This document shows, one piece after another, positions 8,541 through 53,340 of a stretch of 64,000 nt of DNA (position 1 is its first letter; every line of letters begins with the position of its first letter). Source of the stretch: a virus. Both the position numbers and the translations under genes were made by a program. Location: IMG/VR virus record IMGVR_UViG_3300049445_000358; one strand, written 5' to 3'. A model generated the notes under the pieces. That model did no database searches and was not told where the DNA came from. It saw nothing but the letters and a program-made list of their open reading frames with translations.

Positions 8541-8552
8541 TTGGAGAAAGTC

Positions 8553-9044
8553 GTGAAGAAGGCATTAAGTGCATTGGCCTTACTGGTGAACCTTGGCCTG
8601 GCCAGCCTAACCCCTGCCAAGGCTCAGACATACAACTACTTCCCGGCAGCGGGATCGCCGACGCAGTGGACTGTCTACCGGTCAGACGGCAACTACGCCG
8701 GCTACGACACCAACAACGGGTTCGTGCCAAATTGGAACACCTCGTACCTCTGGTACAGCGATCCGACAACGGCAACGAATCTAGCCTGGGCTCTGCAGAA
8801 CAAGCAACGGACGGGCGCCAGTGCGACGGCCCTGCAAAGAGCTTGGCAACCGGTCGGCTCGGGCGGGTACTTCAAGATCTTCTACCAGGACGGCAACCCG
8901 CCGACCCACGTTGAGATACTATGTACCCTCAGCTCTAACGGGTCGCAGTTCTTTTCGGGTTCCGGCTGCGGCTGGGGAGGCAGTGGGTACGAGACGCAGT
9001 TCAATGCGCCGGACAGCCTCTTCATCTCCCAACTGCCGAACTAA
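8553..9044 (+). CDS. Secreted/periplasmic protein
   Basis: GGAG RBS, GTG start, signal peptide KKALSALALLVNLGLASLTPAKA|QT. Confidence 0.7.
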   Translation: MKKALSALALLVNLGLASLTPAKAQTYNYFPAAGSPTQWTVYRSDGNYAGYDTNNGFVPNWNTSYLWYSDPTTATNLAWALQNKQRTGASATALQRAWQPVGSGGYFKIFYQDGNPPTHVEILCTLSSNGSQFFSGSGCGWGGSGYETQFNAPDSLFISQLPN

Positions 9045-9052
9045 CTAAGGGG

Positions 9053-9080
9053 AGAGGGTGGCTAGCACCACCCTCTTCTA
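9053..9080 (+). terminator. Possible terminator or processing hairpin
   Basis: AGAGGGTGG-ctagca-CCACCCTCT 9-bp stem; weak U tract. Confidence 0.45.
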
Positions 9081-9098
9081 ACCATACAGAGGTCCAAC

Positions 9099-9476
9099 AT
9101 GGATGCATACCAGGCGCAAGAGCTAACTAACAAGGCTCTGTCGGATAAAATGTCGAAGGAGCAGGCGGAGGCCCGCCAGAAGGAGCTTGACCGGCAGTCG
9201 GCCATAGCTGAGGCCAAACGAGGGGCTGCTGCTCATCTGGACTCCTTGGCAGACAGAATTGCCGAGGAGGCCAACAAGGGTTACCGGGAGATCCGGTTGT
9301 CCTACAACGAGGGGACGGACGCTCTGAAGTTCCAAGCTCTGGCTGAGGAAGCTCAGCATCGGGGTTTCCACACCAAGTTCCACGTGAGTGAAACTGACTA
9401 CGGTGACTCCGCAGCTCCAGCTTGGAGCACCGACTACTACCTAATCATCTCATGGGGTCCAGTCAATGTCAGGTGA
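9099..9476 (+). CDS. Hypothetical protein
   Basis: GAGG RBS, 125 aa. Confidence 0.7.
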   Translation: MDAYQAQELTNKALSDKMSKEQAEARQKELDRQSAIAEAKRGAAAHLDSLADRIAEEANKGYREIRLSYNEGTDALKFQALAEEAQHRGFHTKFHVSETDYGDSAAPAWSTDYYLIISWGPVNVR

Positions 9477-9699
9477 AGGTGAAGCAGCAGGCCGTCGAGT
9501 TGACGCCTATCTCCAAACGGTCAGCCGGCTCGAACCGGATATCAGCATGACCGACCCTGGGGCGTACGGGACGAGCATGGCCATCAGCCTCAAGCGGATC
9601 GCCGACCAGCTATCCTTTCTTGATCAGATCAACGATCACCTCAGGTCCATCCGTATCCTCCTTGAAGAGGAGGTAGCCTACAGAAGAGCGCGAGAATGA
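9466..9699 (+). CDS. Hypothetical protein
   Basis: Packed ORF. Confidence 0.6.
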   Translation: MSGEGEAAGRRVDAYLQTVSRLEPDISMTDPGAYGTSMAISLKRIADQLSFLDQINDHLRSIRILLEEEVAYRRARE

Positions 9700-9962
9700 A
9701 GACTAGTATCTTCGACTCGGAGGGTCTGCAAGACATTGCCAGGCGTCGGGCCGAAATAAACATATTGGAGGCACGTGGCTGTCAGAGGTGCGGCAATACG
9801 ATCGGTGTCGTTAGGTATCACCAGCGCACCATGTACAACTACGAAGGCACGCCAGGCGATAAGAACGACCCCAACATGGTGAGTCTATGCCCTCCCTGTA
9901 CCAAAGAGAACGACGAGTACTGGGAGGCCATGTGGGACGAGTACTACAGAGGGTGTCTCTGA
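9696..9962 (+). CDS. Small Cys-motif (zinc-binding, HNH-like) protein
   Basis: CQRCG ... LCPPC; ATGA overlap with the upstream ORF. Confidence 0.55.
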   Translation: MKTSIFDSEGLQDIARRRAEINILEARGCQRCGNTIGVVRYHQRTMYNYEGTPGDKNDPNMVSLCPPCTKENDEYWEAMWDEYYRGCL

Positions 9963-10357
9963 TGAAGTGGAACGAATCGCCAGTCGGAGAGTATTGGTAT
10001 CGCTATGAGGACAGGAGGTACGCTCCGCCTGTCAACGAGTACGACGAGGTCGTCGGAGTGGGGTCATTAAAGGTCCACCTCCGAGAGTTCCCAGTGGTAA
10101 GACACACCCCCAAAGGGGTGATACTAGGAGGGGCCTCAGACTCGTATCACCGCAACTTCGAGAGGTTCGTCTGTCACGAGTGGACCAAGAAATTTGCCTG
10201 CAAGACGATCGAGGAGGCCCAAGCGTCCTTCCTTGCCCGGAAGGCCCGCCAAATCCACATCTACCAAGCTCGACTTCGAGATGCCGAACTAGCCGTCAGC
10301 CTAATGAAGCGAATGCAGCTGACTGATGCCAAGGAGCTAGTAGATTTCAGATGGTGA
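9962..10357 (+). CDS. Hypothetical protein
   Basis: ATG overlaps the upstream TGA. Confidence 0.65.
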   Translation: MKWNESPVGEYWYRYEDRRYAPPVNEYDEVVGVGSLKVHLREFPVVRHTPKGVILGGASDSYHRNFERFVCHEWTKKFACKTIEEAQASFLARKARQIHIYQARLRDAELAVSLMKRMQLTDAKELVDFRW

Positions 10358-47133: not shown

Positions 47134-47145
47134 CCGTCGCCGATA

Positions 47146-48108
47146 TCAGGGGTGGGTGAAGGGCTGGAAGAATACGCTGGCTGGGCCCGAAGCGGGTAGG
47201 GCTGTCACAACGGCGTAGCCGTTCATCTTAGACACTCCCGAAGCTCCTTGGACAATGGCGTAGGAGTTTATCTTAGACACTCCCTCGCCTGTAGCTTCAA
47301 CGATGCCATAAGAGTTGAGCTTGCTCACCCGGTCGTCAGCGTTCTCGACGATCCCGAAAGAATTGATCTTAGGGACGGCTGCAGGGGCTGCCTCAGCGTT
47401 GTCAGTTAAGATCGAGAACGTTGCGATCCCGGGCCAGTATGTCGCTCCCGACTTGAAGTAGCCCTGCGACTTACTGCCTGTTCCGACGTTGCCTCCGGAG
47501 TCACCAGCTATCAACGAGTCGTTAGTGGTTATCCTTGTGAAAGTAGGAGCCGTAGTGCTATTGGTGCTTGGTCCGGTAGCAGGGCTGACCCGAGACCAGG
47601 CAAAGCTAAGTAGAGATGCCTGTGATGACACGACAGTAGTCGACAGATTCTCGTTGTCGGTAGCGGTGGTGATTTGGCTGATAGCATGACTGTCGATAGT
47701 ACCGGTCTGAGTGATCGCGTTGTGCGACGTTGCTACACCCATCGTGAAGCTAGTTGTTCCGGAGAGGGTGACCGCAATGGTATTCGATCCTGACGCAGGA
47801 TTGACCAGGTACCAGACCTCGAAGTCCTGGTTATTGCTCTCCTGCGCCGCTGTGATTCCATCCAGCTTAGTCAGGGCAACACCGTTGTAGGTGATGCCTG
47901 TGACCGTCCGAGAGGCCGAGTTGAACGTCGAAACAGCAACGGCGAGGAAGCGGTTCGACCCGGAGGTCGTGTGCGACCAGCTGAAGCTAGAGACGTTCGT
48001 CGACCAGCTTCCTCCGTTGCTCTTCGAGGCAGCATCGAAGGCTGCCTTAGCAGATAGAGGCCATAATAAGGCTACAAGTAGGACAGCGAGTAGTAGACGC
48101 TTGATCAT
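47146..48108 (-). CDS. Signal-peptide-bearing beta-rich (fibre/adhesin-like) protein with C-terminal repeats
   Basis: MIKRLLLAVLLVALLWPLSAKA|; S/T-rich body; 4x VSK(I/L/M)NSY repeats. Confidence 0.75.
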   Translation of the reverse strand: MIKRLLLAVLLVALLWPLSAKAAFDAASKSNGGSWSTNVSSFSWSHTTSGSNRFLAVAVSTFNSASRTVTGITYNGVALTKLDGITAAQESNNQDFEVWYLVNPASGSNTIAVTLSGTTSFTMGVATSHNAITQTGTIDSHAISQITTATDNENLSTTVVSSQASLLSFAWSRVSPATGPSTNSTTAPTFTRITTNDSLIAGDSGGNVGTGSKSQGYFKSGATYWPGIATFSILTDNAEAAPAAVPKINSFGIVENADDRVSKLNSYGIVEATGEGVSKINSYAIVQGASGVSKMNGYAVVTALPASGPASVFFQPFTHP

Positions 48109-49208
48109 GGGGTGCTCTTCACGCCGATGTTAAAGCCAGCTGCAGTAAGGTCCGAGACTGCCCAGGCGCCTCCACCGTTTGGATTGGTCGCCCAGACGTT
48201 GTAGTAGTTGGCAAAGCTGGTTGTGACTGTGACATCCGACGAGTTCGAGTCGACACTTCCGGTACGGAGGTTGTGCTCAATGTGTTGTGGTCCGCTAGCC
48301 CCTCGCTGCCCACGGAACGATGTTACGACTGCATTGACGGAGAAGCTGCCTGAGGGGAAGGTTGTATTTGCATTCCCGAACTTGACACCGCACTGGTTCA
48401 ACTGGTTGTTGGTCGCGCTGCTGATGAAGGTGCCGTCGTTAAAGGTGGTCGAGTTGACGATCGCGGTACAGGGGTTGGTCCCGGTCCACGCTGTCGCATT
48501 ACCTGCTGAAGCAGGCTCCATCGTGACCAGAGCCATTGCTCGAGTATCAGCATCCGCTGCGATCGTCTCTGAATAGGTGTCGGTGGTATTCGTCATCGCG
48601 CCGTAGGCGATCTGGTTTAGCTGGGTGCGACTGTCAGTGGTGACGTCGCCACTGAAGGTACAGATCGAGGCACTGTTGACGTAGAGCGTCGCCTGTCCGG
48701 AGACCGCATAGTTGATGAATAGGTCTACCTGAGTGACACCGATCGTTGGTAGCGCACCGGAGGTGCAGGTAGCAAGGTCAGTAAACGTGCCACCAGTCGA
48801 CCGCTTCGAGAGCTTGACCTGCCCTGCGGTACCGGTCCCACGTACCAAGATTGCAGGGTTCCCGTCTGAGGCATAGACGACTACCATCTGGCCGCCGGAC
48901 ACTGTAGCAGTACCGTCCACGTTCCCATACTGGAAGTGCAGCCAGAGAGTGCCAGTGTTGGTGAAAGTCGGAGAGATCCAGCGGTACGGATTTGGATCGG
49001 TGGAGCTCTGGCTGTTCAGAACGATCGGCGCACGGGAGTAAGCAGCTCTGAACCGGGTCGTAGTTGTGGTAACATTGCAATTAGTTGCGCAGGTACCTGC
49101 TCTCGTGAAGTCGGCGTCCTCATTGCCGGCGAACAGGATCGTGGCTTCAACTGGACTGTTGACGGCTAGCAGCAGTACCAGAAGCAGGAAGGATAAGAGG
49201 CGCCTCAT
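48105..49208 (-). CDS. Signal-peptide-bearing beta-rich protein
   Basis: GGAG RBS; MRRLLSFLLLVLLLAVNSPVEA|. Confidence 0.75.
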   Translation of the reverse strand: MRRLLSFLLLVLLLAVNSPVEATILFAGNEDADFTRAGTCATNCNVTTTTTRFRAAYSRAPIVLNSQSSTDPNPYRWISPTFTNTGTLWLHFQYGNVDGTATVSGGQMVVVYASDGNPAILVRGTGTAGQVKLSKRSTGGTFTDLATCTSGALPTIGVTQVDLFINYAVSGQATLYVNSASICTFSGDVTTDSRTQLNQIAYGAMTNTTDTYSETIAADADTRAMALVTMEPASAGNATAWTGTNPCTAIVNSTTFNDGTFISSATNNQLNQCGVKFGNANTTFPSGSFSVNAVVTSFRGQRGASGPQHIEHNLRTGSVDSNSSDVTVTTSFANYYNVWATNPNGGGAWAVSDLTAAGFNIGVKSTP

Positions 49209-49209
49209 G

Positions 49210-49761
49210 TTATGCTCCATCACCAGTAACGGTAAATGTTGAAGTAGAGAAGACAGACACACCCAAGTATGAATTCTGTCCGAAGGTCTTGGTAAACGAA
49301 TGTGGGTTTGCAGCAAACGTTGCGCCACCACCTGCAGACACTGTTACTTGACCTCCTGCGGTAGTTTGCAACAGGGCGATGTTGCATCCTACAACAAGGG
49401 ACGAAGGAACGGTCACTGCGACTGGCGACGAATTGGTGAACTTAACTGTTGTGCCACAGTCTGCAGCAGCCAGGGTATAAGTAGTACCCGACTGGGTCGT
49501 GACTGTCCCTATGACAGTCCCGAAAGTATTCGTGCCGGACCAGGTATTGTTGCCCGACGAAGAGGGAGCTGCCGTACAGGTGAAGATCCCAGTGCCTGCC
49601 AGTGCTGAGGCAAAGCTCCCAGCGGAACAAGTGAATACCAGTACCGGACTTACCTTCTGGACTGTCTGGGCTAACAGAGCCCCGACAAGGCCTACCGACA
49701 GCAGGCCGGCAATTACGATGGCACGAAGCCGAAGCTTGGGCTTTCCCGTTCCCGTTCTCAT
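49210..49761 (-). CDS. Fibre-like protein with an N-terminal signal/anchor
   Basis: LRAIVIAGLLSVGLVGALLA|Q; TTYTLAAADCG domain shared with the upstream fibre; ATGA overlap. Confidence 0.7.
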   Translation of the reverse strand: MRTGTGKPKLRLRAIVIAGLLSVGLVGALLAQTVQKVSPVLVFTCSAGSFASALAGTGIFTCTAAPSSSGNNTWSGTNTFGTVIGTVTTQSGTTYTLAAADCGTTVKFTNSSPVAVTVPSSLVVGCNIALLQTTAGGQVTVSAGGGATFAANPHSFTKTFGQNSYLGVSVFSTSTFTVTGDGA

Positions 49762-50549
49762 GTCAGAGTCCATCCGCCTTGGGATTGCGTTACGACCCAC
49801 GTGCCGGCTGCGTGGCATTCAAGCATTATGAACCACCCCTTGGTGTTCCCCTCGATAGTACCTCCTGGAGCACTATCCGAACCAGACCAGGTTATTACGT
49901 CTGTGCCGTTGGCGGCGAAGCGTAGAATCTGGTTCACGATGACAGAGAGGCCGTAGTTGAGTCCGATCACTGCAGCAGGAAGCGATCCGATGACTGTCCC
50001 TCCGGCTCCTACGTTTGTGTAGCGGGTTCCGCTCTCTCCGGCCGAAACAGAGAAGTTAGCTGTCTTAGCGACTACCGGGACAGTAGTGGCTGTGCTTCCC
50101 GCAGCTCCTCTGATAGCGAAGTAGTTGACACCATCCGAGTGGATGGTCGCCCCTTGGTTCTGTTGTAGAATTAGGGTGGCTGCCCCATTGATAGTCGAGG
50201 GGCCTGCTGCCGTAATTGTGGCTGCTCCCACTCCGATGTTGATCACCCACAGCTTCGAATCCGGCGGCATGAAGATACCGCTGGAAGAGTTAGCTGCAGC
50301 CAGAGCTACTGCGACCGGGGACGCATTGTTGAAGACAACGATCTTGCCAGCGTCCGTGTACAGGACGGTGTAGGAGGTGCCTGCCGTCGTGATGACAGGG
50401 GTGCCATCAACCTGATGGCCTCCAAGCAGAGTTCCATCACCGACGAACAAGCGGTCGAGGTCTTGATCAACGAGGAGCTCGCCGTCATTGGGCACGAGGG
50501 CCAGACGAGCAGCAGAACCTCCACGCCTAAAGTCAATTTTGCCTGGCAT
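49758..50549 (-). CDS. Tail fibre protein with an Mtd_N-like N-terminus
   Basis: IDFRRG...GELLVDQDLDRLFVGDG..GG. Confidence 0.7.
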   Translation of the reverse strand: MPGKIDFRRGGSAARLALVPNDGELLVDQDLDRLFVGDGTLLGGHQVDGTPVITTAGTSYTVLYTDAGKIVVFNNASPVAVALAAANSSSGIFMPPDSKLWVINIGVGAATITAAGPSTINGAATLILQQNQGATIHSDGVNYFAIRGAAGSTATTVPVVAKTANFSVSAGESGTRYTNVGAGGTVIGSLPAAVIGLNYGLSVIVNQILRFAANGTDVITWSGSDSAPGGTIEGNTKGWFIMLECHAAGTWVVTQSQGGWTLT

Positions 50550-52798
50550 CAGAAGGTCCCCAAATCAATCTCGACGTCGGTAGGTGAGCAGTCGCCGAAG
50601 CCTCCCAGATTCAGATCCCACTCAGCATCTGCTGCGTTGAGATCTACCTCCTGACCAGCTTGCAAAGCCAGAACGATAGGATTGCTGCTCTGTGTTGATC
50701 CGATCCCCAGAGGAGTATACGGATAGACTGTGACCGACGATAGATCCTCGAGCCCTTGTCCGTACAGATTGAATGACTGGTACTTCGAGTACAGAAGAGA
50801 CCCGATGAAGTCTGGCGGGAGGGAGTCTTCGAAGACTGCGTCGTCGATGCGGAGGAACTGACTGTCTGTGGGATGAGCACAAGGAGTAGTACCGAACATC
50901 CCTCTATATAAACCTGTGAGATCGTAGGCGTTCTGACCTGTTAAGGTAGCAGTGGTATAACCGATGAACTCAACGTCGCCGTCTGGGTCTTTGACAGCGC
51001 ACACACTTAGACCTGAAGCAGCCTGTGCATCCGTCACAGACTCCAGATTGCCGTTGCTCATTATTAACGATACCGACAGGGTGTTTGTATTGTCGGGGTT
51101 AGAGCCAGTATAGTCCGGGAGAGAGGCAGTAGTCACCCCCTGACGAGATGGACCTCCCTTGGTGCCGAACTGGATGTAGGTCGCATCATCGTCTGAGACG
51201 TAGACGTTCGCTCCTCCCCAATTGGGATCCGAAACACCTGCTGTACCTCCTGAGATGCCGACCATGATGGTCGGTAAGGACTTGCCTCGGAAGGTGAGAA
51301 GCTCCGGAGTTGGCTCCAAGATGATCGGCGGATTGACGGGACCGGGGGCCACTCCTGTATCGAATAGTGTCGGAGGCACGCTTTGCTGCTGTGGGTACAG
51401 GATCGTGGAGGTGGCTCCTATCGGGAACTCCTCGCAGACAAAGGTCAGTACCCCCTTCTCATCCTCTTCGATGGTCTGGACGCGCACAGGGAACTTGTTC
51501 AGTCCCAGAGTCGCATCCGTGAGCGAGACTGCATCCATGGGCTCTAAGACGCAGTACTGCCATCCGAGCTTGAAGGTGAATGTCCTACGGATGGCAATGT
51601 TACGCTTGAGCTGGATGTGCGCGCTGACAGAGGCATAGTTGATATGGGTGAATTCATCAGCGAGGCCCATACGATCGACACGAGGACCGTATGTCTCAAC
51701 CTGATTCTCGTCTTTCGCCTCAGCAACCGAATCGTTATAGAGGAGGTACCGGTCTCGGAAGTCGATCCTGATGACATTCTTGACATCTACAGGGTCAACT
51801 CGGCTTACGGTAACCGGGTCTTCTCCTTCGTCGGCCTGGATGAAGTCCAAGTCGGTAAGGTCGAAGAGTATGGGATTCTTAGGACTGTAGTACTTCAGGG
51901 CCCTATCAGCATGAGCTGCGTCATAGCCAGGATTGGTCCCGTCGTACTTGTCCCAGTACGGGATGAACTTAAGTATCGTCCCTGTCCACACAGGAGCAAT
52001 CAACATGTTCTTGCACCAGCGGTCCAAGATGCTGGAGGCAGGTTCTACGTTGTTCAGGACGACAGACATCCCGAAGCCAACAGCCTGACAGTAGGTGGAG
52101 ACTGCATTGTCTCCGATAGCAGGGTTGGTAGCATCTGCAGACGAGAACAGACTTGTGGAATCCACGAAGGATGTTGGTACGGGAACGCCATACCGAGTAT
52201 TGGTCAACAGATCATAGATGCACTCTGCTGGATCGGCATCCATCAACACTTGAGTGCTATCTGGCGCAGTGTACAGGTTAAGTGGGCAGGTACCAGCAAA
52301 GATACCTTTCGGAACGAAATTGAGTTGGGGGATTGTAGCTGAGGAATCCAACGGCCAATGATAGAAACCTATAAAGGCTGTGAAGGTGTAGTTGTAGACG
52401 TCGTCCGGATGATCCAGTAGAGGAGGCCATACTGCCTGGTCTTGCGTCCCGAAGAACAGCTCGAAGACCTTGCCGTCAGGGGCAGTGCTAGGGGTGTAGG
52501 TGGCTTGGTCGTCGAAGACGATATACAGGTCCGAGATGTCTCCTTCACCTAGGGCCCCCATGAATGAGGCAAAGTACTTGAACCCAGTTGTCTCGTTCTT
52601 GCCTCCCGACAGGAGTCCTTTGCCTCCACCTGACTTAATAGCCTGCGACTGAAAATCGTTCGCATAGATGACATTCATGGTCACTCGGGGAGTGCCATAA
52701 ATGATCGGGATGGGTAGGATGTTGACAGCCGTCTGGATCTGGAGACCCGTGAACTCCGGGATCGCCTTCTTCTTGGACGGCGCGAACAAGAACCCCAT
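50549..52798 (-). CDS. Tail tip / central tail protein (GTA-like, lambda J-like)
   Basis: PIPIIYG, DPAECIYDLLTN.RYG, LEPMD.V.L; position after NlpC/P60. Confidence 0.8.
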   Translation of the reverse strand: MGFLFAPSKKKAIPEFTGLQIQTAVNILPIPIIYGTPRVTMNVIYANDFQSQAIKSGGGKGLLSGGKNETTGFKYFASFMGALGEGDISDLYIVFDDQATYTPSTAPDGKVFELFFGTQDQAVWPPLLDHPDDVYNYTFTAFIGFYHWPLDSSATIPQLNFVPKGIFAGTCPLNLYTAPDSTQVLMDADPAECIYDLLTNTRYGVPVPTSFVDSTSLFSSADATNPAIGDNAVSTYCQAVGFGMSVVLNNVEPASSILDRWCKNMLIAPVWTGTILKFIPYWDKYDGTNPGYDAAHADRALKYYSPKNPILFDLTDLDFIQADEGEDPVTVSRVDPVDVKNVIRIDFRDRYLLYNDSVAEAKDENQVETYGPRVDRMGLADEFTHINYASVSAHIQLKRNIAIRRTFTFKLGWQYCVLEPMDAVSLTDATLGLNKFPVRVQTIEEDEKGVLTFVCEEFPIGATSTILYPQQQSVPPTLFDTGVAPGPVNPPIILEPTPELLTFRGKSLPTIMVGISGGTAGVSDPNWGGANVYVSDDDATYIQFGTKGGPSRQGVTTASLPDYTGSNPDNTNTLSVSLIMSNGNLESVTDAQAASGLSVCAVKDPDGDVEFIGYTTATLTGQNAYDLTGLYRGMFGTTPCAHPTDSQFLRIDDAVFEDSLPPDFIGSLLYSKYQSFNLYGQGLEDLSSVTVYPYTPLGIGSTQSSNPIVLALQAGQEVDLNAADAEWDLNLGGFGDCSPTDVEIDLGTF

Positions 52799-53340
52799 TA
52801 GACTGGTTCCTCCGCATCTGTCTGGAACTCTGGCAGGACGTAGCCCTTGCCTTCAGGACACCAGTACGAGAAGAACCTCGGACGACGTTTTGCAAGGTTG
52901 TAGTTGGACACGAAGCTGTCTGAGCGGCATTTCCCAGGAGGGTTCGCATGGATGAGGTTAGGCCATTCGGTAACTATGCCTCCGTGTGCCCAGCAGTGAC
53001 CGAACTTGAACAGGACGACATCTCCAGGCTTGGGAGGCCCTTCAACTTCTCCTGCCCAAGTGAGAACAGCTTCAAGATAGAGCTCAGTACGTTGGTGGAT
53101 CGCCCACTGAGCAGGATAGGGTCTAGGATCGAACCAGGGAATCAGCCCTACCCGGCTGAAGATCTCGATGAGGATCATGGCACAATCGACGCCTACATCC
53201 TTGATCGATCCGTTCGAGACATAGGGAGTCCCGACCCAAGTGAAGGCCTCAGCCACGAGGAGTTTCCTCGCCTCTTCCTCGGTTGGTGTCGGAGTCGGGG
53301 TTAGCCCGGGAGGATTTGTGTCGACTGTCTGATCGGACAT
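52798..53340 (-). CDS. NlpC/P60 tail-associated peptidase
   Basis: AFTWVGTPY, GVDCA, PGDVVLF, HGGI, IHA. Confidence 0.9.
   Translation of the reverse strand: MSDQTVDTNPPGLTPTPTPTEEEARKLLVAEAFTWVGTPYVSNGSIKDVGVDCAMILIEIFSRVGLIPWFDPRPYPAQWAIHQRTELYLEAVLTWAGEVEGPPKPGDVVLFKFGHCWAHGGIVTEWPNLIHANPPGKCRSDSFVSNYNLAKRRPRFFSYWCPEGKGYVLPEFQTDAEEPV

Follow-up and report, generated by a model that had tools for sequence, protein, structure and literature searches.

A candidate Sec-exported recognition cassette following the tail genes of a phage

Introduction

Structural and receptor-binding proteins of tailed phages are taken to be cytoplasmic. In the viral record IMGVR_UViG_3300049445_000358, from a soil phage, three consecutive genes follow those for a tail tip protein and an Mtd_N tail fibre, and their predicted products begin with Sec-type signal peptides, which raises the question of where these proteins act. 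A preliminary description offered two answers: receptor-binding or decoration proteins exported for disulfide folding in the periplasm and added to virions at or after lysis, or late-expressed surface proteins that mask receptors or aggregate cells. Positions below refer to the window, i.e. the whole stretch of DNA analyzed (64,000 nucleotides).

Results

Locus layout and translational coupling

The cluster consists of genes A, B, and C on the minus strand, located after the tail tip and Mtd_N fibre genes:

50549..52798, minus strand: P0005, Rcc01698-like tail tip protein (749 aa)
49758..50549, minus strand: P0004, Mtd_N tail fibre (263 aa), without signal peptide
49210..49761, minus strand: gene A (P0001, 183 aa), signal peptide, small N-terminal segment with a Cys pair, and C-terminal fibre-knob-like domain
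48105..49208, minus strand: gene B (P0002, 367 aa), signal peptide, ConA/LamG-like jelly roll, and C-terminal beta-sandwich; member of phrog_6368
47146..48108, minus strand: gene C (P0003, 320 aa), signal peptide, beta-sandwich (residues 23-235), four repeats of about 16 residues, and PFTHP tag

The joins between the genes were found as first described. The ATG of gene A forms an ATGA overlap with the stop codon of the fibre gene, gene B starts one base past the stop of gene A (with GGAG six bases upstream of its ATG), and the start of gene C and the stop of gene B again share ATGA. Inside the cluster, no promoter-like or terminator-like site exceeded the shuffled expectation. Genes A, B, and C share a transcript with the tail genes and are translationally coupled to them.

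Each of the three genes is present once in the genome, with no second copy. No integrase of the tyrosine integrase family was found, and a search with six common Pfam endolysin families returned nothing from the apparently complete genome; counterparts of the lysis genes of the related phage locus L003 were likewise not found. Pfam and NCBIfam gave no family match for A, B, or C (NCBIfam none for their bacterial homologues either), and the PHROGs that they match are without specific function.

N-terminal export signals

The predicted signal peptides are as follows:

49669..49761, minus strand: signal peptide of A, residues 1-31, ending in ..ALLA before Q; conserved Q-x-KVSP directly after the predicted cleavage site in relatives
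49143..49208, minus strand: signal peptide of B, residues 1-22, ending in ..VEA before T; A-x-A-T, conserved to at least 90%, immediately precedes ILFAGGEDxDF
48043..48108, minus strand: signal peptide of C, residues 1-22, ending in ..AKA before A; signal-less homologues start MAIAFDAAS.. and mature C starts AFDAAS..

All three N-termini have the make-up of the Sec-type signals that the preliminary description had proposed. The n-regions are basic (A MRTGTGKPKLRLR, B MRR, C MIKR), and the hydrophobic cores comprise 12-18 residues, with best 10-residue Kyte-Doolittle means of 2.74 (A), 3.58 (B), and 3.48 (C). Small residues occupy -1 and -3, although A has a less usual Leu at -3. A net positive charge within the first 10 residues occurs in 93% of 61 scored signal-bearing B homologues, and A20, A22, and T23 are at least 90% conserved among 25 signal-bearing B proteins, whereas the rest of the signal varies. 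An N-terminal signal just before ILFAGGEDxDF was scored in 68 of 106 B homologues; the other 38 begin M-T-ILFAGGED. The signal-less homologues of B and C have their first residue at the predicted cleavage site or only a few residues away from it. By these sequence features, A, B, and C each carry what qualifies as a genuine Sec/SPase-I export signal. The proteins would be exported and cleaved after ALLA, VEA, and AKA, respectively, leaving the predicted mature N-termini (pyroGlu-)QTVQK for A, TILFAGNEDADFTR (TILFAG..) for B, and AFDAASK for C.

When about 106 greedy ORFs of the 80-kb genome were scanned for signal peptides by a crude method, B and C were flagged but A was missed, because the cleavage site of A abuts its h-region. 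Elsewhere in the genome the scan yielded only one or two other plausible cases (e.g. window 8541-9044), so that three in a row are not background. Other signal types were rejected. No lipobox and no Cys near the cleavage sites of A, B, and C were found that would indicate a lipoprotein. As for Tat signals, the RR of B precedes LLS instead of xFLK. The signal of B is also short and strongly hydrophobic, and relatives contain a single basic residue (K or R) there.

The hydrophobic N-termini could in principle stay uncleaved as structural helices or membrane anchors, or could result from wrongly assigned starts, and the long core of A (18 residues) would suit such a reading. For B, however, no ATG, GTG, or TTG lies between the annotated ATG and the mature N-terminus (V20 is GTT), hence the hydrophobic segment cannot be dropped by start choice. 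Conservation of the AxA site falls exactly on the domain boundary although the h-regions diverge, the AF2 models show the signal helix detached from the fold (B and C), and a disulfide signature, described next, is confined to signal-bearing B. That the proteins stay in the cytoplasm or keep their N-termini is barely credible in our view.

Cysteine content of signal-bearing and signal-less forms

Mature parts of signal-bearing B proteins contain on average 6.0 Cys, with an even count in 93% of cases, compared with a mean of 2.2 and 58% even counts in signal-less B. C44, C148, C183, C247, and C273 are invariant in signal-bearing B, and three conserved Cys pairs are specific to this subfamily. 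A contains four Cys and C none. The Cys statistics suggest that B folds with disulfides in the periplasm, and that A probably does too. Of the periplasmic disulfide folding originally proposed for all three products, the part concerning B is supported by its three signal-form-specific Cys pairs; such folding is plausible for A and does not apply to C.

Predicted folds of the mature proteins

The following elements were delimited within A and C:

49213..49545, minus strand: knob domain of A, residues 73-183, holding the TTYTL..DxG stretch common to fibre P0004
47200..47376, minus strand: repeat module (R module) of C, disordered in the monomer model (pLDDT below 50)
47149..47163, minus strand: C-terminal tag PFTHP of C, of the type P(L/F)TH(W/P)-COOH found on signal-bearing R proteins of phage and Rhs loci

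The domain that A had been said to share with the cytoplasmic fibre was recovered at 50% identity to P0004 over 32 residues (pairwise E 2e-6), and the match to phrog_21978 covers residues 73-181 of A. P0004 has an Mtd_N attachment domain at residues 9-40; by Pfam search, A has none. Structural neighbours of A in the Atlas were clusters of Mtd_N and DUF2793 (TM 0.55-0.61 for both) and of tail-fibre C-termini. Most homologues of A have signal peptides, and its N-terminal segment is variable among relatives; a tblastn search against cultured phages gave no match. In its mature form, A corresponds to a fibre-tip knob that lacks Mtd_N, the domain for tail attachment.

B matches phrog_6368 along nearly its full length (residues 23-365 to profile positions 2-326 of 328, E 2.4e-40). 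Its AF2 model (pLDDT 93.9) matched, at a Foldseek probability of 1.0, calreticulin lectin domains, CBM66, PL36/PL20 lyases, and BoNT Hc-N; LamG entries matched as well, and the top PDB matches include alginate and glucuronan lyases. E30, D31, R59, D162, Y167, and E214 are conserved family-wide. On the basis of the model, mature B is predicted to be a LamG/ConA-like lectin or glycanase-fold protein.

C is modeled as a beta-sandwich followed by four disordered repeats of about 16 residues (type SK(L/I/M)N(S/G)Y.(I/V)V), and its domain matches minor-tail PHROGs. A PDB fold search with C gave nothing at E <= 0.001, and the Atlas matches were confined to viral 220-aa clusters without a name and to domains of extracellular proteins from bacteria. 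The only tblastn match in cultured phages was weak and partial (23% of the query, E 6e-4), to an archaeal spindle-shaped virus record. Complex prediction for B(23-367) with C(236-320) reached a score of 0.88; one control reached 0.75, so that the score bears on binding in neither direction.

Relatives of B in cultured phages

A tblastn search with B against cultured phages gave 13 matches, all below 60% identity, and the two homologues translated in full (from Strzyga and phiCB2047-B) were signal-less. By tblastn and profile, gp82 of RPP1/RLP1 and SUFG_00074 of phiCB2047-B (phrog_6368) belong to the same family as B, with a match to the two-domain fold of BFVD E3PZC5 (TM 0.69/0.78). These phages are N4-like roseophages, and mass spectrometry detected RPP1/RLP1 gp82 in purified virions (PMC4193335, Table 4). 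Both gp82 and SUFG_00074 have no signal and few Cys, and start where mature B would, whereas B has a 22-residue signal and three Cys pairs. Along the B tree, signal presence switched about six times, suggesting that the two forms may be functionally interchangeable. The fibre- or decoration-like identity first proposed for the three products accords with the knob at the end of A, this virion member of the B family, and the minor-tail PHROG matches of C.

A mobile cassette in phages, Rhs loci, and conjugative elements

Beyond what the preliminary description had noticed, the three genes are, judged by their homologues, one conserved mobile cassette composed of a fibre-knob protein (A), a LamG-like protein (B), and a third protein containing 16-residue repeats (C in this phage), in which the C repeat module appears always to accompany B; a protein with C-type repeats comes after the B gene in nearly every locus examined. 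Cassette members have signals on all or on none. The exported form occurs in four settings: (i) ends of siphophage tail operons, (ii) myophage baseplate clusters, (iii) alphaproteobacterial, mostly Rhizobiales, Rhs toxin loci, and (iv) conjugative or mobilisable elements.

Phage loci L003, L005, L006, and L019 encode an A-like protein, B, and a repeat protein, all with signals (the third gene of L006 is without recognisable repeats), and L020, L021, and L023 contain the B and repeat pair with no recognised A. The signal-bearing triad is also present in seven alphaproteobacterial Rhs loci (L009-L015), where A-B-R lies directly upstream of a small RHS-repeat protein, followed by an Rhs protein of 1300-1600 aa; one of these ends in an HNH nuclease domain and one has a C39-like domain. 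In the conjugative or mobilisable loci L028-L030, signal-bearing B and R follow a different, Cys-rich, signal-bearing first gene and adjoin coupling-protein, relaxase, and Mob genes.

Where B has no signal, its neighbours never have one either. In L008 and in Strzyga (L001), a signal-less B gene lies between the tape measure and Dit-like DUF2460 genes; the repeat module of L008, also signal-less, is fused to the N-terminus of the Dit-like DUF2460 protein, and L027 has a signal-less C-type protein beside a signal-less B. The signal state of B and its neighbours agreed in 21 of 21 loci, which amount to only 2-3 phylogenetically independent contrasts, so no significance can be attached to this concordance. 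Tail-tip, baseplate, or fibre genes abut the cassette in six or seven of eight phage contexts, with L005 lying inside a baseplate cluster; in L019 the cassette does not adjoin tail genes. No conserved signal-less partner common to the sipho- and myophage contexts was found.

The fold of B and the gene order in L003, with the cassette immediately upstream of lysis genes, also bear on a possible role in breaching the envelope, with B (fold common to PL20/PL36 lyases and GH16 glucanases) and its partners as exported glycan degraders that aid lysis or release. Alginate and glucuronan lyases among the top fold matches, together with the endolysin search that came back empty for this genome, are in line with such a role. 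However, L003 and L006 hold the cassette alongside a classical endolysin/holin set, the signal-less relatives are tail proteins, and lectin folds (calreticulin, CBM66) match B equally well. Nor do the proteins look like lysis proteins themselves: they are beta-rich and of soluble type, with no peptidoglycan hydrolase domain and no holin/spanin architecture. A helper role in lysis is very improbable.

Discussion

The explanation we prefer, to which we would give slightly less than an even chance, is that A, B, and C form a portable, mobile, Sec-exported glycan-binding recognition complex whose place of action is outside the cytoplasm and which does not become part of the tail while this is assembled in the cytoplasm. 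The proteins would be exported via Sec, their signals cleaved, and B, probably also A, folded with disulfides in the periplasm. B may then bind C-type repeats, giving a multivalent glycan-binding complex. Such a complex would act in trans, either at the envelope of the infected cell or free in the surroundings after lysis, and its target would be a surface polysaccharide of host-type cells, which it would bind and possibly cleave. Rhs toxins and conjugative elements would likewise need to recognise the surface of another bacterium, with no virion or lysis involved. In this phage, the R module is not fused to any tail protein. Against an exported recognition complex speak the signal-less family member RPP1/RLP1 gp82, which is a virion protein, the location of the cassette next to tail genes in most phage contexts, the repeated changes of signal state on the B tree, the small number of independent contrasts behind the signal concordance, and the non-lytic contexts, for which no outer-membrane route was identified. 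Since the phage has no other copy of B, an ancestral virion role may be retained.

Virion proteins they might be if A, B, and C matured and pre-assembled in the periplasm and docked on finished tails once holin lesions or lysis mix the compartments, yielding disulfide-stabilised receptor-binding proteins. The proven virion member of the B family (PMC4193335), the single copy of B, the translational coupling to tail genes, the place beside tip, baseplate, or fibre genes kept in sipho- and myophages, and the repeated switching of signal state within one family all favour this, and the variable N-terminal segment of A could be a context-specific docking adaptor. However, no tail-attachment domain remains (A is without Mtd_N, and R is not fused to Dit), no signal-less partner is conserved between the sipho- and myophage contexts, the cassette of L019 lies away from tail genes, and we found no precedent in the literature. 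Addition to the virion at or after lysis becomes less likely because the exported cassette also occurs in Rhs loci and conjugative elements, which are virion-free settings. We consider such arming of virions rather unlikely. The more specific combination, in which a periplasmically matured, disulfide-bonded receptor-binding complex docks at lysis and the same portable targeting module serves Rhs toxins and conjugative elements, we regard as unlikely.

Signal-bearing non-virion proteins encoded among tail or fibre genes are known from T5 (Llp), phi80 and N15 (Cor), and lambda (Lom), and act at the host envelope. They are small lipoproteins or beta-barrel outer membrane proteins, unrelated to virion proteins and often independently expressed. 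In contrast, A, B, and C are of soluble type, 183-367 aa long, without lipobox, have tail-accessory homologues, and form a tail-coupled three-gene unit. Lom has been described in PMC12309495.

Exported lectin-like proteins could also cover the glycan that serves this phage as receptor, on the infected cell or on debris from it, and prevent superinfection or loss of progeny, comparable to plasmid surface exclusion or self-protection of Rhs loci. In favour of this, the three proteins are related to receptor-binding modules and are exported, A is similar to a domain of the fibre that the phage itself encodes, the cassette adjoins tail genes as llp, cor, and lom do, and surface exclusion would be consistent with its presence on plasmids. 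Of the two original proposals, the second, with surface proteins masking receptors or aggregating cells, suits the Rhs and conjugative contexts at least as well as virion addition does. However, A, B, and C have no lipobox or membrane anchor, soluble periplasmic proteins need an outer-membrane route to reach surface glycans before lysis, and expression from a late tail operon leaves little time before then. Moreover, released masking proteins would block fresh hosts too, and stoichiometric masking of abundant polysaccharide receptors is costly. Masking or exclusion is quite unlikely.

The carbohydrate-binding decorations of siphophage baseplates (evolved Dit, accessory CBM proteins) fit the signal-less relatives of the cassette. 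Here, unlike in those decorations, signals are present throughout the module, which follows the tip and fibre genes and is unfused to tail proteins. Sec-dependent Rhs toxins are a known class (PMC3482391); a search of that survey for the terms tail fibre, LamG, and C39 did not find the A-B-R accessory cassette. Signal-bearing A-B-R adjoins the Rhs genes in the exported Rhs/WapA-type loci, whereas an Rhs gene is missing from this phage. Conjugative adhesins and exclusion proteins such as TraN, PilV, and TraT are exported and deal with the surface of another cell. Their likeness to B and R of L028-L030 is one of genomic context only.

We found neither signal-bearing tail-fibre homologues nor an A-B-C cassette described in the literature. 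A whole tail-accessory module (knob, lectin-like protein, and repeat scaffold) appears to have moved jointly into the Sec pathway and to have gained conserved disulfides, and in its exported form it spans phages of two morphotypes, loci for Rhs toxins, and plasmids. Should it be a portable recognition kit, one targeting device would link three kinds of mobile or antagonistic systems, and the determinants of host range in soil Alphaproteobacteria could be approached from a new side. If virions are armed after lysis, this would be a new, extracytoplasmic assembly route for tailed phages. Cultured carriers of the cassette include Mesorhizobium shonense DSM 29846 and Rhizobium sp. Root1203.

Gene order in the tail module

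The window comes from a virus record of 80,218 bp that is rated complete (G000, the whole genome). Its tail genes lie on the minus strand and run from the tape measure to the Mtd_N fibre, followed by genes A, B and C:

60784-56426, minus strand, tape measure
after the tape measure, minus strand, two DUF2460 Dit-like genes
after the DUF2460 pair, minus strand, hub
52798-53340, minus strand, NlpC/P60 peptidase, after the hub
52798-50549, minus strand, Rcc01698-like tip
50549-49758, minus strand, Mtd_N fibre
49761-49210, minus strand, gene A, after the Mtd_N fibre
49208-48105, minus strand, gene B
48108-47146, minus strand, gene C
47149-47163, minus strand, C-terminal tag of C (counterparts in L003, L005 and L009-L019)

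The junctions from fibre to A, A to B and B to C are ATGA, a one-base gap and ATGA, respectively. The stop codons of C, in the minus-strand tail operon, and of a convergent plus-strand replication-side gene are separated by 12 bases (window 47134-47145) lacking a terminator-like hairpin, and no promoter- or terminator-like sites exceeding shuffled expectation were found within the A-B-C cluster. Late expression of A, B and C together with the tail genes is strongly supported.

In the 80,218 bp of G000, neither a tyrosine integrase (PF00589) nor the endolysin and peptidoglycan-binding families PF00959, PF01464, PF01510, PF01471 and PF13539 were detected; PF05838 also gave no match, a search that is uninformative because its controls were silent too. 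PF05838 aside, the tail NlpC/P60 gene was the only peptidoglycan-hydrolase-like gene seen. One of very few export candidates besides A, B and C is a 167-aa ORF at 8541-9044 (plus strand), which lacks a Pfam match and whose N-terminus resembles a signal, with a basic start, then a hydrophobic core and GLA↓S. Judged only by where homologues occur, the host would be an alphaproteobacterium, probably of the Rhizobiales.

Signal peptides and cysteine content

The preliminary description had placed three consecutive signal-bearing genes behind the tip and fibre, and this was borne out: in each product a basic n-region leads into a hydrophobic core, followed by a cleavage site with small residues (predicted as ALLA↓Q in A, VEA↓T in B and AKA↓A in C). 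Signals were judged by comparing homologues. An N-terminal signal was present in 68 scorable B homologues and absent in 38, bearing in mind that some start codons may be wrongly set in metagenomic gene calls. Signal-less B proteins begin M-T-ILFAGGED and signal-bearing ones read A-x-A↓T-ILFAGGED, with the AxA-T junction at least 90% conserved while h-region sequences vary. No alternative start codon was found for B. Relatives of C mostly begin MAIAFDAAS, and predicted mature C begins AFDAAS; most relatives of A carry a signal, with a conserved Q-x-KVSP segment and also a Cys pair behind it. Sec-type signals that end in a conserved cleavage site are strongly supported, and it is hardly credible that the proteins are not exported.

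Mature signal-bearing B proteins contain on average 6.0 cysteines (even count in 93%, five positions invariant), and signal-less ones 2.2 (even count in 58%). Judged from sequence, this pattern marks proteins that fold oxidatively outside the cytoplasm, and a disulfide signature in B is strongly supported. C has no cysteines.

A quick maximum-likelihood tree built from 120 B proteins places that of the window within a well-supported clade of 51, all signal-bearing after correction of two mis-scored rows; B proteins from Rhs loci are nested inside it. Along the branches, signal state switches about six times. B and its neighbour agree in signal state in 21 of 21 loci. As these amount to only 2-3 independent contrasts, the apparent all-or-none pattern across cassette members is suggestive, short of statistical support.

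Predicted structures of A, B and C

Neither A, B and C nor the homologues in bacteria matched any Pfam or NCBIfam model. B (family phrog_6368) was modelled with a pLDDT of 93.9 as two domains, a jelly roll of ConA/LamG type and another beta-sandwich. Its fold matches in the PDB are lectins and polysaccharide lyases or glucanases; a lysis-helper enzyme among the cassette products is considered very improbable. The viral neighbours of B come from N4-like roseophages, VpV262, and Achromobacter and Serratia siphophages, and are uncharacterised. In C, residues 23-235 form a beta-sandwich modelled with high confidence, followed by four repeats of ~16 residues that are disordered in the monomer model.

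The domain previously proposed as common to A and the fibre was confirmed (16 of 32 residues identical). The C-terminal domain of A is also C-terminal in virion structural and minor tail PHROGs, and it occurs in Mtd_N/DUF2793-type fibres; the Mtd_N attachment domain was not found in A. Homology of the cassette products to tail accessory proteins is strongly supported. The middle of the window's fibre (49758-50549, 263 aa) contains an additional domain (~residues 52-150), the part resembling the knob of A, which is missing in the 140-160 aa fibre of a close relative (L003:8992-9414).

The cassette in phage loci

In nearly all loci read, a same-type repeat protein lies downstream of B and shares its signal state, and conservation of A, B and the repeat protein as a cassette is strongly supported. 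The relative L003 (57-67% identity) has the order tip, Mtd_N, A, B, 84-aa repeat protein and lysis genes. Signal-bearing cassettes also occur in another siphophage, in the baseplate clusters of two myophages and, with no adjoining tail genes, in a 110-kb viral contig. The myophage contigs carry four signal-bearing genes in a row inside or just past the baseplate cluster (L005:6573-10255, flanked by the gp25-like sheath initiator and Baseplate_J; L023:5692-9200).

In signal-less loci, B has the tape measure gene on one side and the Dit genes on the other, and the repeats form an N-terminal fusion with DUF2460 (L008), occur by themselves (L007, L025) or come after a signal-less C-type domain (L027). 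Immediately after its B gene, L008 encodes a Dit-like DUF2460 protein with three of these 16-residue repeats at its N-terminus (9059-10162), and the repeats may be where B docks on tails.

Two known cases come closest: signal-less gp82-type virion proteins, of the same family as B but a different compartment, and exported Llp/Cor/Lom-type genes, which share the placement beside tail genes but encode unrelated proteins. RPP1/RLP1 gp82 was detected in purified virions, and phiCB2047-B SUFG_00074, a homologue of B, is listed as its counterpart (PMC4193335, Table 4). This proven virion protein, the single B copy in G000, the tail genes adjoining the cassette in most phage contexts and the repeated switching of signal state within the B family all speak for post-lysis docking onto virions, which we nonetheless regard as unlikely. 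Receptor masking or exclusion by the cassette products appears more doubtful still. A literature search for signal-bearing tail-fibre homologues and for the cassette found no description.

The cassette in Rhs loci and mobile elements

Three plasmid/ICE contigs encode a Cys-rich signal protein together with B and a repeat protein, both signal-bearing (L028:5273-7479, L029:4567-7295, L030:2338-4121) beside TraG/VirD4-type coupling protein, relaxase, Mob, NikA-like, Rep or ParA genes; therefore, the cassette also travels on conjugative or mobilisable elements. Because the exported cassette occurs in these elements and in Rhs loci, settings that involve no virion and no lysis, and because the tail-attachment parts (Mtd_N, Dit fusion) are lost, our tentative preference is for an exported recognition complex that is self-contained and works in trans, either at the envelope or once released. 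B would bind the repeats, and the resulting complex would bind surface glycans. For the phage, candidate gains are that infected cells or debris adhere to new hosts, and that polysaccharide is bound or cleared.

In phage and Rhs loci, signal-bearing repeat proteins share the conserved extreme C-terminus P(L/F)TH(W/P)-COOH; it occurs nowhere else in the scanned loci, and signal-less and plasmid versions lack it. The Rhs loci belong to seven alphaproteobacterial genomes or contigs, mostly Rhizobiales (L009-L015; Mesorhizobium shonense, L011:7047-14629; Rhizobium sp. Root1203; Rhizomicrobium; MAGs). There, signal-bearing A, B and repeat genes lie directly upstream of a signal-bearing RHS-repeat protein of ~90-107 aa and then an Rhs protein of about 1300-1600 aa (1336-1578 aa), which ends in an HNH nuclease domain in L012 and has a Peptidase_C39-like domain in L015. 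Together, the three genes may serve Sec-exported Rhs toxins as an accessory set of a kind not yet described.
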